Assembly (NCBI GenBank): GCA_012519195.1
Contig: JAAYQP010000099.1
Location: forward strand, 1,318 to 65,317
Source of the DNA: Clostridiales bacterium
GTDB taxonomy: Bacteria; Bacillota; Clostridia; Lachnospirales; Lachnospiraceae
Length of the DNA: 64,000 nt
Reading direction: 5' to 3'
Position numbers and translations under genes: made by a program. Under the pieces are notes generated by a model that saw nothing but the letters and a program-made list of their open reading frames with translations, did no database searches and was not told the origin of the DNA. Each line of letters opens with the position of its first letter. Position 1 is the stretch's first letter. Positions 1,428 through 38,011 of the stretch are shown here, piece by piece.

Positions 1428-1460
1428 TGCATAGTTAAAGAATGCTTAAGAAAAGAATAA

Positions 1461-1495
1461 AAAATCAGGTTCTTATCTAGGAACCTGATTTTTTG
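1461..1495 (+). terminator. Rho-independent terminator of mnmA
   Basis: aaaatcaggttc / gaacctgatttt perfect 12-bp stem with an 8-nt loop, followed by a T-run. Confidence 0.8.
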
Positions 1496-1525: not shown

Positions 1526-1810
1526 GGGTTGTCGGAGCAATGATAAATTTCAGCGCCTTCATAAAACTGCAATGTTTATCTTAACCGAAAAAAATAGCGA
1601 ATGATTTTTATCCATAAGAAGATCGTTTCTCGCCATCGGTACTTAGGTTGTGGCAGATTTATAGTCTGCTGCAACCTTATGTACCGCTATGTGCGAGAAC
1701 CGAGCGAGAGCGTATCTACGATGGATAAAAATCATTCGCTATTTAAAATAATATATATGCGATAAACATTAGTTTCTTGATAATAGGCGCTGAACAAAAT
1801 GCGACAGCCC
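1526..1810. repeat. Long nested imperfect palindrome (family A, copy 1), core 1626-1699
   Basis: Successive complementary arm segments surround a centre near 1660 (listed in findings). The core is homologous to 37458-37532. Confidence 0.8.
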
Positions 1811-24246: not shown

Positions 24247-24394
24247 ATATATAAAAGAAATTTAATCACCTTTTAGCTAAGCAAGTGATAAGGTTTTTGT
24301 ATAAAAGCATGGATTTTTCCAAGGAAAAACAGTATAATAAATCAGTAAATTCATTAATTTTGTTCTACAATATTTAGGAAAGAAGTACGTGATT

Positions 24395-25468
24395 ATGAAT
24401 AAAGAAAAAATACTATCAAAACATGATTTTTATTATGATCTGCCAGAGGAACTGATCGCACAGGATCCCCTTGAGGATCGCTCCAGTTCAAGGCTATTAG
24501 TACTGGATAAAGAGACCGGAGCTACCCAACATACGATCTTTAAGAATATCAAAGAGTATTTAAAAAAGGGAGATTGCCTGGTTCTAAATAATACAAAGGT
24601 AATTCCAGCCCGGTTAATTGGTGAGAAAATCCATGATAATAGCGGTGACAAGGATGAGATTGTCCGAGGAGCAAAGATAGAAATTCTGCTCTTGAAAAGA
24701 AAAGAGAATGATATCTGGGAGGCCTTAGTCAAACCCGGTAAAAAAGCAAAGCCTGGTACCAAGGTTAGTTTTGGTGATGGTCTGCTGGTTGGTGAAATTA
24801 TGGAAGTAATTGAGGATGGTAACCGATTAATTAAATTCTACTATCAGGGAATCTTTGAGGAGATCCTAGACCGCCTAGGTGAGATTCCCCTACCACCTTA
24901 TATTACCCATGAGCTTAGGGACAGAGACCGTTATCAGACTGTTTATGCAAAATATGAGGGTTCGGCAGCAGCGCCAACAGCAGGTCTTCATTTTACAAGG
25001 GATTTGTTAAAAGAAATTGAAGAAATGGGGATAGGTATTGTAAATGTAACTCTTCATGTTGGTCTTGGTACCTTCCGTCCAGTTAAAGTAGATAATATTC
25101 TAGAGCACCATATGCATTCCGAATTTTATCAGGTGTCGAAGGAAGCTGCAGATACAATCAATAGCTATAAAAATAATGGAGGAAGGATTATCTGTGTAGG
25201 AACCACTAGTTGTAGAACCATAGAATCAGCGGCAGATGATAAGGGAATCGTACATTCAGGAAGCGGAGATACCTCCATATTTATCTATCCAGGATATCAA
25301 TTTAAGGTTATGGATGCATTGATTACAAATTTCCATCTACCAGAATCAACCTTAATGATGCTAGTATCCGCTCTAGCTGGTAGAGAGCATATTATGTCAG
25401 CCTATGAGGAAGCCGTTAAAGAACGATATCGCTTCTTCAGCTTTGGGGATGCAATGTTTATTCAGTAA
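24395..25468 (+). CDS. queA: S-adenosylmethionine:tRNA ribosyltransferase-isomerase
   Basis: [24 protein letters not shown] and C-terminal [11 protein letters not shown] are typical of QueA. ATG 24395; the ORF track starts at GTG 24389. Confidence 0.93.
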
Positions 25469-25691
25469 AAATAGGAGCAGTTGCAAAATCATATAAGGGT
25501 ACACAGATATAATCGTAATGCACCGTTAGAAGAACTCCTGCTGTGATTTGTGTTGTCATAAGCGAACATTTTATGTTCGATATGTGACAATACAAATCAC
25601 AGTAGGTGTACTTCTGTCGGTGTATAAACACACAAAGTGTGTTGGATATATCTGTGTACCCGATTCAATTTTGCAACTGCTCCTTTATTTT
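25469..25691. repeat. About 220-bp imperfect palindrome (family B) filling the queA / oxidoreductase junction
   Basis: Paired arm segments: aggagcagttgcaaaat / attttgcaactgctcct, gggtacacagatata / tatatctgtgtaccc, and a 27-nt inner helix around a centre near 25570. Confidence 0.75.
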
Positions 25692-25711: not shown

Positions 25712-27109
25712 CTAAGCGAATTTTGCCAGAATACTTCTTGCCACACTAATTCCATTGGCAGACGCTTGCTGCAATCCTCTTGTAATGCCGGCACCATCAC
25801 CGATTGCCCTTAATCCCTTTACACTGGTTTCAAAATCATCATTAACGACGACCTTATTCGAATAGAACTTTACCTCAACGCCATAAAGTAGGGTTTCGTC
25901 GCTGGCAATACCTGGTGTGACCTTATCAAGTGCTAGAAGCATTTCCTTGATATCTACCAAGATACGATGAGGGAATACTAGGGAGAGATCACCGGGAACG
26001 GCATCCTTTAGGGTTGGTATCAAGTTATTACGGCAGAGACGTTCCTCCGTTGTTCTTCTACCTCTCTGAAAATCACCAAAGGTCTGAACAAGGATTTTGC
26101 CACCGCAAAGCATGTTACTAAGCTGAGCGATTGATTTACCATATTCAATAGGTGTTTTAAATGGTTTCGTAAAGTTCTTGGATACTAAAATTGCAAAGTT
26201 TGTATTATTGGTTTTAAACTCCTTGGATTTATAGGCATGTCCATTTACCACGGCCAGATTATTCTCATAATATTCCGTTGCTACTTCCCCGGATGGATTG
26301 GTACAGAAGGTTCTTACCTTATCATCGAAGGTTGGGGTATAGTATACAAGCTTAGCCTCGTATAAGTTTTTATTAAGGAAATCCATTACCTCATCACGAA
26401 CTTCAACACGGACACCTATATCAACGGTTCCCACCTTAGTTTCAATGCCATGTGATTCGCAGATATGGCTAAACCAATCAGAACCTTCGCGGCCAATGGC
26501 GGCTACGATTTCATCTGCATAGTATGTATTACCTTTGGAAGTTGTAATTCCTTTTACCTTTTGATCCTCTATAATAATGTCTTCAACCATAGTATTGAAA
26601 ATAATCTCAATACCTTCCTTCAGTAGATGCTCCTGTAAGCGGGTATAGATTTTATAACCTTCCTCCGTACCTAGATGACGGATCGGACATTCGATTAATT
26701 TTAAGTTTGCATTAATAGCCCGTCTTCTGATTTCACGGATTTCGTTTTCTTTATCGATACCATAAACGTTGGTATCAGCGCCGAATTTTAAATAGATATC
26801 ATCGGATTCCTTTATTAGTTCAACCGCTCTATCGTAGCCTAAAATATCTGGAAGGTTACCTCCTACATCTGGGGAGAGGGAGAGCTTACCATCCGAAAAG
26901 GCTCCTGCTCCAGCAAAACCGGTGGTTATTGAGCAAGGTTTACATCCGATACATTGCTTGGTTTTTCTCTTCGGACAATTTCTTTTTTCAATGGATCGAC
27001 CCTTTTCAACCATTAGGATCTTAAGATTTTTATTCTCTTTAATCAATTCATAAGCACAAAAAATACCGGAAGGACCGGCCCCTATTATAATCACATCATA
27101 TTTTTGCAT
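25712..27109 (-). CDS. NAD(P)/FAD-dependent oxidoreductase (COG2509-like)
   Basis: N-terminal YDVIIIGAGPSGIFCAYEL dinucleotide-binding motif, 465 aa. ATG 27109 follows AAAGGAG; the ORF track adds 3 codons. Confidence 0.8.
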   Translation of the reverse strand: MQKYDVIIIGAGPSGIFCAYELIKENKNLKILMVEKGRSIEKRNCPKRKTKQCIGCKPCSITTGFAGAGAFSDGKLSLSPDVGGNLPDILGYDRAVELIKESDDIYLKFGADTNVYGIDKENEIREIRRRAINANLKLIECPIRHLGTEEGYKIYTRLQEHLLKEGIEIIFNTMVEDIIIEDQKVKGITTSKGNTYYADEIVAAIGREGSDWFSHICESHGIETKVGTVDIGVRVEVRDEVMDFLNKNLYEAKLVYYTPTFDDKVRTFCTNPSGEVATEYYENNLAVVNGHAYKSKEFKTNNTNFAILVSKNFTKPFKTPIEYGKSIAQLSNMLCGGKILVQTFGDFQRGRRTTEERLCRNNLIPTLKDAVPGDLSLVFPHRILVDIKEMLLALDKVTPGIASDETLLYGVEVKFYSNKVVVNDDFETSVKGLRAIGDGAGITRGLQQASANGISVARSILAKFA

Positions 27110-27435
27110 TGCCAACACTCCTTTACGTGTGTTTATAGCTTTTGTAATAACCTTGCTTATTCTACCATGAATTCCTATTTAATGCAAGATAAGACAACAT
27201 GCAATTACCAAAAAATGGGTAGCAATTAAGGCGATAATATGTAAGCAATACTGTAACAATATGAAATAGTAAAGTAGGCAAATAATGGTTGATAATAAAT
27301 GATAGAAGTGATACTTTAAAAATAGTAATGCACTTAAACTTTGTCCGGAAACTGTATCGGTTGTTTATTCGTTTTGCGCGTAAGCATAGTTTCGTAATAA
27401 TCTTTTGTATTATATTATTATTAAGGAGGGTCAAT

Positions 27436-37344: not shown

Positions 37345-37384
37345 AAAAGGGTGTCGCACGAAATATGCGACTCCCCTTTTTTTG
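37345..37384 (+). terminator. Terminator of efp
   Basis: aaaagggtgtcgca / tgcgactcccctttt stem followed by a T-run. Confidence 0.7.
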
Positions 37385-37420
37385 TAAATATATAAAAGTA
37401 GCATATGATATGCTGTTCAT

Positions 37421-37578
37421 AAAAGTAGGGTGTGATTATTGTTCCATAAGTAGACCATTTGTCGCCATTGGTACTTAGCTTGTGGCAGATATACTTATCT
37501 GGCACAAGCTTATGTACCGTTATGTGCGACAATCAATTTAAACGTGTCTACGTTGGATAATAATCACACCCTATTTTT
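37421..37578. repeat. Long hairpin element (family A, copy 2), core 37458-37532
   Basis: Homologous to 1591-1744. Internal arms are tagggtgtgattatt / aataatcacacccta, ttgtcgc / gcgacaa and agcttgtggcagata / tatctggcacaagct. Confidence 0.8.
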
Positions 37579-37588
37579 TTAAGACTCC

Positions 37589-38011
37589 TTAAAATTCCAT
37601 CAAATTAAGCCCTATTTCATCACTGAATCCTCGATTAACCTTTCCGTCTATTATAGTTACAATAATTTCACCAGTTGCGCTAATCGTTGCGCTGCTTAGA
37701 TGCCCCGCATAGGTTTCATTGGTTTCAACATTTCCTAATACGATATGCAAATGAAGATAAGGTTCCTCACCCATAAGGGTTAGATTGCCGGTAAGGGAAG
37801 CGATTTCATAATCACCGGTATATTCCTTACTGTAATATGTTTTGGAAGCAGTATGAAAGATCCCCACAACTGCCTTATTAACAGCACCTATTCCGCTGAC
37901 ACTCCCGAGTCTTATTCCTTCTGAAATACATAACTGCTTTAATCCGGAGATGATTTCTTCTCCTTTCTCCATACGTAGAACAATCGTATTCCCAAATCTC
38001 TTATATTCCAT
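37589..38011 (-). CDS. PPC-domain (DUF296) DNA-binding protein
   Basis: 140 aa. The pattern ...SGIGAV..., LTGNL and HLHIVLG is typical of DUF296/PPC. Confidence 0.8.
   Translation of the reverse strand: MEYKRFGNTIVLRMEKGEEIISGLKQLCISEGIRLGSVSGIGAVNKAVVGIFHTASKTYYSKEYTGDYEIASLTGNLTLMGEEPYLHLHIVLGNVETNETYAGHLSSATISATGEIIVTIIDGKVNRGFSDEIGLNLMEF

Follow-up and report, generated by a model that had tools for sequence, protein, structure and literature searches.

The question raised by this locus is what kind of element has placed two similar long hairpins between genes, one downstream of mnmA (copy 1) and one downstream of efp (copy 2), in a stretch of 64,000 nucleotides of contig JAAYQP010000099.1 from a Clostridiales bacterium of the Lachnospiraceae, a stretch to which we refer as the window. 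A preliminary description had implied that the two copies are a discrete structured RNA tied to translation genes. Our analysis does not support that reading and reveals instead a dispersed repeat, here called Family A, that lies by unrelated genes in at least 50 genomes. We consider it probable that Family A consists of mobile, non-autonomous hairpin repeats of the kind of the MITEs (transposable elements of the miniature inverted-repeat type), widespread in Lachnospiraceae and forming a structurally unusual new family. The two copies in the window are:

37426-37573, plus strand: copy 2, the inner hairpin of the repeat (TAGGGTGTGATT...AATCACACCCTA) and the feature under study.
1595-1741, plus strand: copy 1, its inner hairpin, which is the part homologous to copy 2, placed by its fold and its score with the covariance model R1 described below.

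The comparison of the two copies bears out what had been reported of them. The second copy is real and similar to the first, with a mean column identity of 84% in a MAFFT alignment of the regions with their flanks and with 114 of 150 columns identical in a global alignment of the hairpins alone. Each copy folds as a single long hairpin, at -76.0 kcal/mol (z = -11.9) for copy 1 and -76.8 kcal/mol (z = -12.3) for copy 2, with none of 200 shuffled sequences equally stable, and the minus strands of both copies give folds weaker by 6-9 kcal/mol. RNAalifold applied to the two sequences gives a joint structure of 54 pairs, 41 of them identical, eight changed on both sides with the pair kept, five changed on one side to or from G-U and none broken, although the absence of broken pairs is partly built in because RNAalifold on two sequences prefers mutually compatible pairs. 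The eight double changes are not an artefact of this procedure; they comprise all five compensatory pairs that had been named as a minimum, plus three more. All 21 differing paired columns keep the pairing, and 15 of 42 unpaired columns differ between the copies. The statement that no reading frame is shared also holds, the apical loops of the two copies being of different length, and in the family at large the units have no reading frame in common and their apical loops vary in length. Finally, both copies lie, as described, between convergent genes with A-rich and T-rich flanks, while mnmA and efp have terminators of their own.

A scan of species-representative genomes with the exact pattern GGTACTTAG-N20-45-CTTATGTACCG returned at least 113 loci from at least 50 genomes. 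Among the matches listed, a genome has up to 12 loci, and nearly all carriers are Lachnospiraceae or unclassified Bacillota metagenome-assembled genomes (MAGs), the genera being Roseburia, Agathobacter, Anaerocolumna, Herbinix, Lachnotalea, Anaeromicropila and Eubacterium, with a few Selenomonadaceae. The covariance model R1, built from 80 non-redundant copies, recovers the copies found by the pattern at 50-138 bits and adds about 20 divergent copies without the exact pattern in the same loci. When the whole window was searched with R1, copy 1 scored 126.8 bits and copy 2 scored 111.3 bits (37436-37573), and no significant match was found beyond these two. The earlier failure to recognize a named RNA family is confirmed by Rfam 15, which has no match to the family at gathering or E-value thresholds: the whole window gave no match at gathering thresholds, the best sub-threshold score for the two copies at E <= 10 was 20 bits against thresholds of 50-100, and 12 homologous loci gave only unrelated cobalamin and M-box riboswitches. 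Nothing specific was found in the searchable literature on a Lachnospiraceae MITE or RNA motif of such kind. A blastn search with the canonical and the Roseburia-type element against plasmids and phages gave no match, and the lone match of the pattern on a viral contig was rejected as chance, lying inside a coding region without a hairpin. Two observations on the carrier assemblies may be added. Contig JAMPFJ010000001.1 (L070), labelled Bacteroidales, has three family copies together with a Firmicute-like efp fragment 70% identical to the efp of the window, and its label or binning is probably wrong. In addition, many MAG contigs of the sample start or end in or beside a copy (L017, L024, L029, L033, L038, L043, L052, L067, L090 and L106), so that assemblies of Lachnospiraceae MAGs are likely to break often at this repeat.

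The unit of the family is a single imperfect palindrome of about 150-330 bp that can be folded end to end, and its conserved core sits near the tip and forms a three-way junction. From the outside inwards, the core is composed of a helix P1 of the GAGAC/GUCUC type, a variable helix of 8-10 bp, a CRY/RYG helix and a CGGUAC/GUACCG helix with a YU bulge between them on the 3' side, a UU/UAU internal loop, and an apical helix of unconstrained sequence. The junction is completed, in the 3' arm only, by a 2-bp hairpin with a GNRA loop, G[Y-GNRA-R]C. This small hairpin (helix 5) is formed in 78 of 80 copies, its loops in the alignment are all of the GNRA type (GAGA, GCAA, GGAA, GAAA, GGGA and GCGA), and its closing pair covaries, being C-G in 44 and U-A in 34 of the 80 copies. 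The homologues thus hold a conserved core and are not ordinary core-less terminators. Beyond the core, the rod extends for 60-140 nt per arm, and its helices are wholly different between subfamilies yet complementary.

Selection on the fold, which had been proposed from two copies, is now supported by 80 non-redundant homologues and 50 pairs, with column shuffles and pairing partners slid by 1-3 columns as controls. Paired cells amount to 82.8%, against 64.4% in shuffled and 33-45% in slid alignments, and the covariation score is 0.484 against 0.179, a value reached by none of 500 shuffles. Double-sided changes are found in 41 of the 50 pairs, and 28 of 36 RNAalifold pairs show compensatory changes; in the apical helix (helix 4), where 87% of cells are paired, double-sided changes affect 11 of 13 pairs. 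Although the search pattern fixes the GGUAC/GUACC helix in the at least 113 loci, 15 divergent copies recovered with the model show covariation in it (GGUGC/GCACC, CAGUAC/GUACUG and UGGUAC/GUACCA). The fold is also specific to one strand. The plus strand gives the more stable fold in 96 of 110 copies (mean difference -7.3 kcal/mol), and G-U plus U-G cells outnumber A-C plus C-A cells by 189 to 115 overall and by 102 to 47 in the inner helices; these strand and wobble counts are not phylogenetically independent, so that p-values overstate the effect, although its direction is consistent. K-turn, loop E and hammerhead cores were rejected by inspection only, as was a DnaA box for TTATCACA. Some copies have additional parts. 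An extra small hairpin, GTCATTAAGTT...AACTTAATGAC, occupies the same position in the 3' arm of the core in three genomes (L046, L051 and L093), and a module of about 35 nt, GAAACACGCTTTGCGAGTTTC, occurs in the 3' outer arm of L010 and L030, in opposite orientations in the two genomes. Such extra small hairpins at fixed points suggest nested mini-elements or expansion segments.

The clearest record of mobility comes from the subfamily of Roseburia and Agathobacter. Its units measure 221-224 bp and have the ends TAGATAATTGTGAAAC...GTTTCGCAATTACCTA. All six copies lie between direct repeats that are AT-rich and 8-12 bp long, for example CATAGATGATAT (12/12) and ATAAAACATAT. An empty site was found in the metagenome contig L135, which reads ...GACTTTGAAAAGT-ATAAAACATAT-ATGAGGAAGGGTAAG... 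with a single 11-mer, whereas the filled site L063 has the 11-mer, a 224-bp element and the 11-mer again between flanks that match L135. The unit inserted in L063 folds end to end as one rod with the same core. Because of these direct repeats and the matched empty site, we conclude that this subfamily moved as an insertion. A similar scan with the flanks of L112 gave no empty site, and a generic search for direct repeats with inverted ends was uninformative outside this subfamily. In Anaerocolumna sedimenticola, near-identical copies are found at unrelated loci of one genome; strain CBA3638 of this species has at least four copies, and Anaeromicropila herbilytica TB5 is another cultured carrier. 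Terminal inverted repeats are seen as TAGATAATTGTGAAAC/GTTTCGCAATTACCTA, TAAATTCTTGTTTATC/GATAAACAAGAATTTA and GGGGCTGTCGCAC/GTGCGACAGCCCC. At L021 (2886-2915), the end of a complete unit is followed after about 10 bp (11 by count) by a second TAGGTACTTGCGAAAC terminus, as if another member of that subfamily had inserted next to it or nested with it.

The genomic setting of the copies was analyzed where both neighbouring genes could be called. None of these 84 copies lies inside an open reading frame (ORF); 28 lie between convergent genes, 47 between tandem genes (29 antisense and 18 sense) and nine between divergent genes. In 57 of the 84, the 3' side of the element is about 100 nt from the 3' end of a gene on the opposite strand. 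The orientation of copies shows no bias, either in the tandem settings or when compared with the strand of most genes at the locus, taken as a proxy of replication direction (35 same, 45 opposite, p = 0.31), and the neighbouring genes have no common theme, the only recurring ORF families near copies being response regulators and ABC transporters. The units also cluster. Head-to-head pairs 270-430 nt apart occur in a dozen loci and tandem pairs in two, and a composite of about 690 nt, made of a reversed unit, a conserved spacer of 150-170 nt and a forward unit, is found at least 10 times in two related MAGs (SC0352 and MGBC129221). The loci of the composite repeat are L006, L040, L047, L054, L062, L069, L074, L094, L101, L107, L110 and L113. 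Its ends are TAAATTCTTGTTTATC...GATAAACAAGAATTTA with no visible target duplication, and its spacer has G+C-rich ends (TTGCCTCCGGCGGGGCAG...CCGCCCGCAGGGCAG). The outer stems of the composite units exist in two fully different self-complementary versions in one genome. The stretch of 1 kb between the two copies in L048 is a pilin gene and not a transposase. Two copies have riboswitches beside them, an M-box riboswitch just downstream of a divergent copy (L012, 1188-1349) and a cobalamin riboswitch about 130 nt downstream of a copy (L013, 6771-6950), and copies therefore also land in 5' leader regions.

With the family defined, the structure of the two window copies can be described part by part. 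The following features of copy 2 were assigned from the predicted structure and the family alignment:

37426-37446, plus strand: 5' arm of the outer stem, with 37554-37573 as partner (predicted structure).
37470-37478, plus strand: core strand GGTACTTAG; it forms the 5' half of the GGUAC/GUACC helix, contributes the UU to the internal loop and begins the apical helix.
37479-37508, plus strand: apical helix and loop, free in sequence and always paired.
37509-37519, plus strand: core strand CTTATGTACCG, the 3' half, followed by the YU bulge.
37534-37544, plus strand: CAATTTAAACG, the degenerate remnant of the GNRA mini-hairpin of the 3' arm (family alignment).
37554-37573, plus strand: 3' arm of the outer stem (predicted structure).

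Copy 1 is larger and more complete:

1526-1810, plus strand: full layered rod of 285 nt with three helices outside the inner hairpin (fold).
1526-1535 with 1801-1810, plus strand: outer stem GGGTTGTCGG/GCGACAGCCC.
1551-1557 with 1786-1792, plus strand: outer stem CAGCGCC/GGCGCTG.
1571-1580 with 1761-1770, plus strand: outer stem AATGTTTATC/GATAAACATT.
1704-1711, plus strand: GNRA mini-hairpin GC-GAGA-GC, in the 3' arm only.

The rod of copy 1 (1524-1812) folds at -124.8 kcal/mol with z of -12.4, and its outer layers recur in canonical copies of many genomes. Copy 2 has a stem of about 60 bp, and each arm of copy 1 measures about 140 nt. The original comparison of the two copies needs correction in two respects: copy 2 has lost the conserved GNRA mini-hairpin, where CAATTTAAACG stands in place of GCGAGAGC of copy 1, and copy 1 extends well beyond the part that had been compared. 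Because the repeat is dispersed, mobile and present in many copies, the differences between copy 1 and copy 2 reflect mostly descent from different repeat lineages rather than local co-evolution.

Both window copies are fixed in the species. Copy 2 is present in all five other efp loci of the same species, identical save for a difference of two columns in L114, and the 415-nt spacer with copy 1 is present in all nine PHP loci of other assemblies; the assemblies that share copies 1 and 2 are all biogas or fermenter metagenomes. In Herbinix (L081), where MnmA is 78% identical and the order mnmA-PHP-NFACT is the same, the mnmA-PHP spacer measures 66 nt, as compared with 415 nt in the window, and holds an ordinary terminator and no copy, while in L011, a genome at greater distance, mnmA is followed downstream by a copy that points the opposite way. 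The efp site is informative in a sister species (L128), which has the gene order of the window, a PCC protein 84% identical and flanks 86-87% identical. Its efp-PCC spacer retains the outer stem only, aaaag-TAGCGTTTGACTATTCATCCA-AAGT-TGGTAAATAATTAAACGCTA-cttttt, and lacks the entire part from P1 inwards, about 105 nt. A deletion at the hairpin base in L128 is likelier than an insertion in the lineage of the window, because the outer stem belongs to the consensus of the family. We infer that the repeat was already present at the efp-PCC site when the two species separated, and that what the host requires at this place is at most a hairpin of the terminator kind and not the core. Another copy, L059, is an asymmetric deletion derivative without the 3' part of the core. 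Conversion between copies also operates, because the whole outer stem has been swapped as a block between L110 and L113, with 14 paired changes.

The immediate surroundings of the two window copies include the following features:

1459-1494, plus strand: terminator hairpin of mnmA, outside the repeat (terminator scan).
37349-37383, plus strand: intrinsic terminator of efp, GGGTGTCGCAC..GCGACTCCCC plus T7, outside the repeat and terminator-like on both strands.
37382-37409, plus strand: weak sigma-70-like match TTGTAA-16-TATGAT, agreeing at 9 of 12 positions, 17 nt upstream of copy 2.
37574-37580, plus strand: T7 run directly 3' of the copy 2 hairpin.

The consensus terminator scan called the terminators of efp and mnmA and neither repeat copy. 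The copies do not have the short G+C-rich stem of about 5-15 bp with a small loop and an immediate U-tract, the T7 run of copy 2 being the only terminator-like feature. On the minus strand, the hairpin of copy 2 is followed by CTTTTAT (37425-37419), and the stop codon of the minus-strand PCC-domain gene (37589-37591) is 15 nt from the hairpin base. The sigma-70-like match is probably a chance occurrence. Several other observations concern this neighbourhood. The efp terminator GGGTGTCGCAC..GCGACTCCCC (37349-37376) resembles the canonical outermost stem GGGGCTGTCGCAC/GTGCGACAGCCCC and the stem GGGTTGTCGG/GCGACAGCCC of copy 1, and this resemblance may be due to chance or to an outer layer that has eroded and left a relic; in the homologous loci, no solo outer-stem hairpins of the GGGGCTGTCGCAC type were found. 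The last codons and stop of the PCC gene overlap CCTTAAAATTCCATCAAAT at 37589-37609, which resembles the canonical 3' outer layer CCTAAAATGTGATAAACAT; the repeat may have supplied the present C-terminus and stop of this gene. Elsewhere in the window, an unrelated long hairpin at 25518-25625, with arms of 41 nt that are 83% complementary (-68.8 kcal/mol, z -11.2), sits between the convergent ORFs 24389-25468 (plus) and 25712-27118 (minus). Model R1 gives no match to it, and it may belong to another repeat family or be a long bidirectional terminator.

The history of such elements can be outlined from these results. Units insert into AT-rich intergenic DNA, with direct repeats of 8-12 bp at their flanks in the one young subfamily where these are visible, they nest and pair with one another, and, once fixed, they wear away through deletions at the hairpin base. 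Both window copies may be regarded as old fixed insertions, and slow erosion would explain why copy 2 lacks the outer layers and the GNRA hairpin. The strand-specific fold of the core would be kept mainly by selection on the propagation or persistence of the element itself, with the plus-strand single-stranded form, either RNA or single-stranded DNA, possibly recognized by mobilizing or protecting machinery. We favour selection at the level of the element over a host function because copies are oriented at random and one orthologous site can do without the core, and a host need for the core appears unlikely. As to copy 2 itself, the T7 run, the minus-strand CUUUUAU and the stop codon 15 nt away make a bidirectional role plausible, and it most likely serves, or is tolerated, as the hairpin at which efp and PCC transcripts end, a suggestion that we hold less firmly than the mobile nature of the family.

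Several of our results weigh against this interpretation. The termini are unrelated across subfamilies that share the core (TAGATAATTGTGAAAC-, TAAATTCTTGTTTATC-, GGGGCTGTCGCAC- and TTGAGTTTTTGCATTTT-type ends), and a single sequence-specific transposase would be insufficient because the core is kept while the termini differ between recently active subfamilies. Direct repeats are absent in the canonical copies, including the lineage of the window, and in the 690-nt composites. All-against-all clustering of 946 ORFs from the at least 113 loci gave no recurrent transposase or reverse transcriptase beside the copies. An element that exists purely as double-stranded DNA would not be expected to have a GNRA loop or wobble pairs specific to one strand. 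Between orthologous copies of different species (L050/L089, L082/L083 and L095/L079), 5-6 pairs have changed in a compensatory manner and 4-11 by wobble, which could mean that the host selects the fold in place, although conversion between copies is seen as well. The terminator role suggested for copy 2, moreover, is deduced from sequence. Some of these difficulties would be removed if the three-way-junction core, with its docking-type GNRA mini-hairpin, were a functional module of RNA or single-stranded DNA, either a fold that guides mobilization or a cargo of several carriers in the form of a ribozyme or a protein-binding RNA. We entertain this idea only tentatively and give it a low probability; if true, it would explain the kept core and the changeable termini, and Family A would represent a new class of structured mobile element.

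Other explanations share part of the evidence with the mobile-repeat interpretation. A set of structured small RNAs, each about 150-300 nt long and transcribed on its own, acting in trans or as cis-antisense regulators of the convergent neighbour and multiplied by duplication or hitch-hiking, would fit the strong covariation, which extends in divergent members even to the most conserved helix, the stability and wobble bias towards one strand, and the GNRA tetraloop with its covarying closing pair; the promoter-like match upstream and the T7 run downstream of copy 2, and the 3' side of the element usually facing the 3' end of an opposite-strand gene, are also in its favour. However, a promoter scan of 300 nt on each side of 99 copies gave no positional peak, the promoter-like site of copy 2 is absent, by eye, from the L128 stretch that matches its upstream region, and the neighbouring genes are unrelated, while the flanking direct repeats with their empty site show insertion and the loss of the GNRA hairpin in copy 2 and of core sequence in L128 and L059 are signs of decay. 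We therefore regard such a small RNA family as unlikely. The insertion footprint, the random orientation, the lack of a promoter at a fixed position and the core loss in L128 also speak against the implied discrete RNA by translation genes. The position of the window copies between convergent genes with A and T runs, and the likeness of the L128 remnant to a plain terminator, might alternatively point to ordinary long bidirectional intrinsic terminators that have become alike by convergence. This is extremely improbable, and as a full explanation it is refuted by the clear homology, which includes an invariant core and a side hairpin and extends over at least 50 genomes, and by the insertion directly shown by L135 and L063. 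Furthermore, stems of 60-140 bp exceed the size of a terminator by far, mnmA and efp already have terminators, and nine copies lie between divergent genes and 18 in sense-tandem positions away from gene ends. A secondary terminator role of individual copies is compatible with these facts.

Two further explanations concern the nature of the fold. The core could be the mobility part of the element, in a process dependent on RNA or single-stranded DNA that is templated by the hairpin or resembles that of short interspersed elements, or it could be a cargo RNA such as a self-cleaving ribozyme. The constancy of the core under differing termini of active subfamilies, the variable length (8-12 bp) of the flanking repeats, the restriction of the fold to one strand, and the compact three-way junction with its GNRA loop and invariant internal-loop nucleotides would all be accounted for, as would the random orientation, under which host read-through transcripts cannot select one strand. 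Nevertheless, the precise ends, the terminal inverted repeats and the lack of an A-tail are those of a DNA transposon, no gene for a reverse transcriptase or an HUH enzyme was found near the copies in the at least 113 loci, and no known ribozyme model matched; we consider this explanation doubtful. Even less credible to us is a palindrome that acts only as DNA, either as a site for a binding protein or a cruciform or as a product of repair or conversion that homogenizes the arms, with no single-stranded fold involved. The GGTAC/GTACC half-sites in both arms agree with it, and so does the block swap of the outer stem between L110 and L113, whose 14 paired changes indicate conversion rather than stepwise compensation. 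But repair between arms would erase conserved asymmetries such as the YU bulge, the UU/UAU loop and the GNRA hairpin on a single arm, all of which are still present; the excess of G-T over A-C on one strand and the greater stability of the plus strand in most copies are also at odds with it. We therefore retain the mobile hairpin repeat as the probable explanation.

The implications of a mobile repeat reach beyond the window. The resemblance between copy 1 and copy 2 is uninformative on the biology of mnmA or efp, and both long intergenic hairpins are explained by the repeat. Lachnospiraceae dominate gut, rumen and biogas communities, and their intergenic DNA is poorly charted. A repeat family of this kind seeds false calls of novel non-coding RNAs, and it probably influences the transcript 3' ends of many genes.

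When compared with known systems, Family A is readily separated from several classes of repeat and RNA. REP/BIME sequences and PATEs are G+C-rich palindromes of about 20-40 nt that are associated with a Y1 (HUH) transposase and make no target duplication, and an assignment of Family A to the REP/BIME-RAYT or IS200/IS605-type PATE systems was rejected in view of its units of 150-330 nt, its 11-bp duplication and the lack of an associated gene. The attC sites of integrons have RYYYAAC ... GTTRRRY ends and stand in cassette arrays, with IntI nearby or distant; they were rejected too, as the canonical ends are unlike the R''/R' consensus by eye and the copies are single or head-to-head with no cassette arrays. 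A retron msr-msd or another RNA linked to a reverse transcriptase, which would occupy a single locus beside the gene of that enzyme, was rejected because the only recurrent neighbouring ORFs are common regulators and transporters. The IS4-family elements and their cassettes, such as the IS231 group, which occurs in Firmicutes and characteristically produces target duplications of about 10-12 bp (ISfinder), are only a lead for Family A, whose termini are presumably unlike IS231 ends; no transposase was found beside Family A copies, and the other subfamilies are without duplication. Like the curated structured RNAs in Rfam, among them long rod-like RNAs such as 6S RNA and the transposon-associated HEARO/IscB omega RNA, Family A shows covariation, a GNRA tetraloop and conserved internal loops, features typical of functional RNAs; unlike them, it has no adjacent protein partner and is present in many copies per genome with flanking direct repeats. 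Like intrinsic bidirectional terminators, it may appear as a hairpin with an A-run and a T-run between convergent genes, and the eroded orthologue L128 has exactly this form, but its size, cross-genome homology, conserved core and mobility set it apart. The SPRITE repeat of Firmicutes, located near the 3' ends of convergent genes, has been proposed to be a co-opted terminator (PMC3049150). Copy 2 is similar in having a T7 run and in lying 15 nt from a stop codon, although SPRITE is an 18-bp duplex with a U-rich tract and Family A is a rod of 150-330 nt with a structured core and mostly no clear U-tract.

The closest likeness is to bacterial MITEs and the pneumococcal BOX, RUP and SPRITE repeats, which have been described as having AT-rich targets, direct repeats that fade and transcripts that fold tightly, as being enriched downstream of convergent genes, as nesting, and as possibly being co-opted to serve as terminators (PMC10969869; PMC3049150). 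Like Correia, ERIC, RUP, BOX and the QMITE of Coxiella, Family A is small, ORF-less, multi-copy, intergenic and enriched at 3' ends and between convergent genes, and it shares with them pairing terminal inverted repeats, nesting, clustering and very stable predicted stem-loops (PMC10969869; PMC3049150). Its units are non-coding, shorter than about 500 bp and present at many unrelated loci, as is usual for MITEs, while a target duplication with an empty site is found for the Roseburia/Agathobacter subfamily only. The flanking repeats are 8-12 bp in Family A, in contrast to TA or 7-9 bp in these examples. Unlike them, Family A spans many genera rather than one species group, and no candidate parent insertion sequence was found for it in the at least 113 loci. 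It also differs from them in that its conserved part is internal, a three-way-junction core whose GNRA hairpin is strand-specific, and the termini are different between subfamilies. An insertion footprint and covariation of the grade seen in RNAs, combined with a kept internal core and variable termini, are the reverse of the normal MITE architecture, and they make testable the question of what selects a strand-specific fold within a mobile DNA element.

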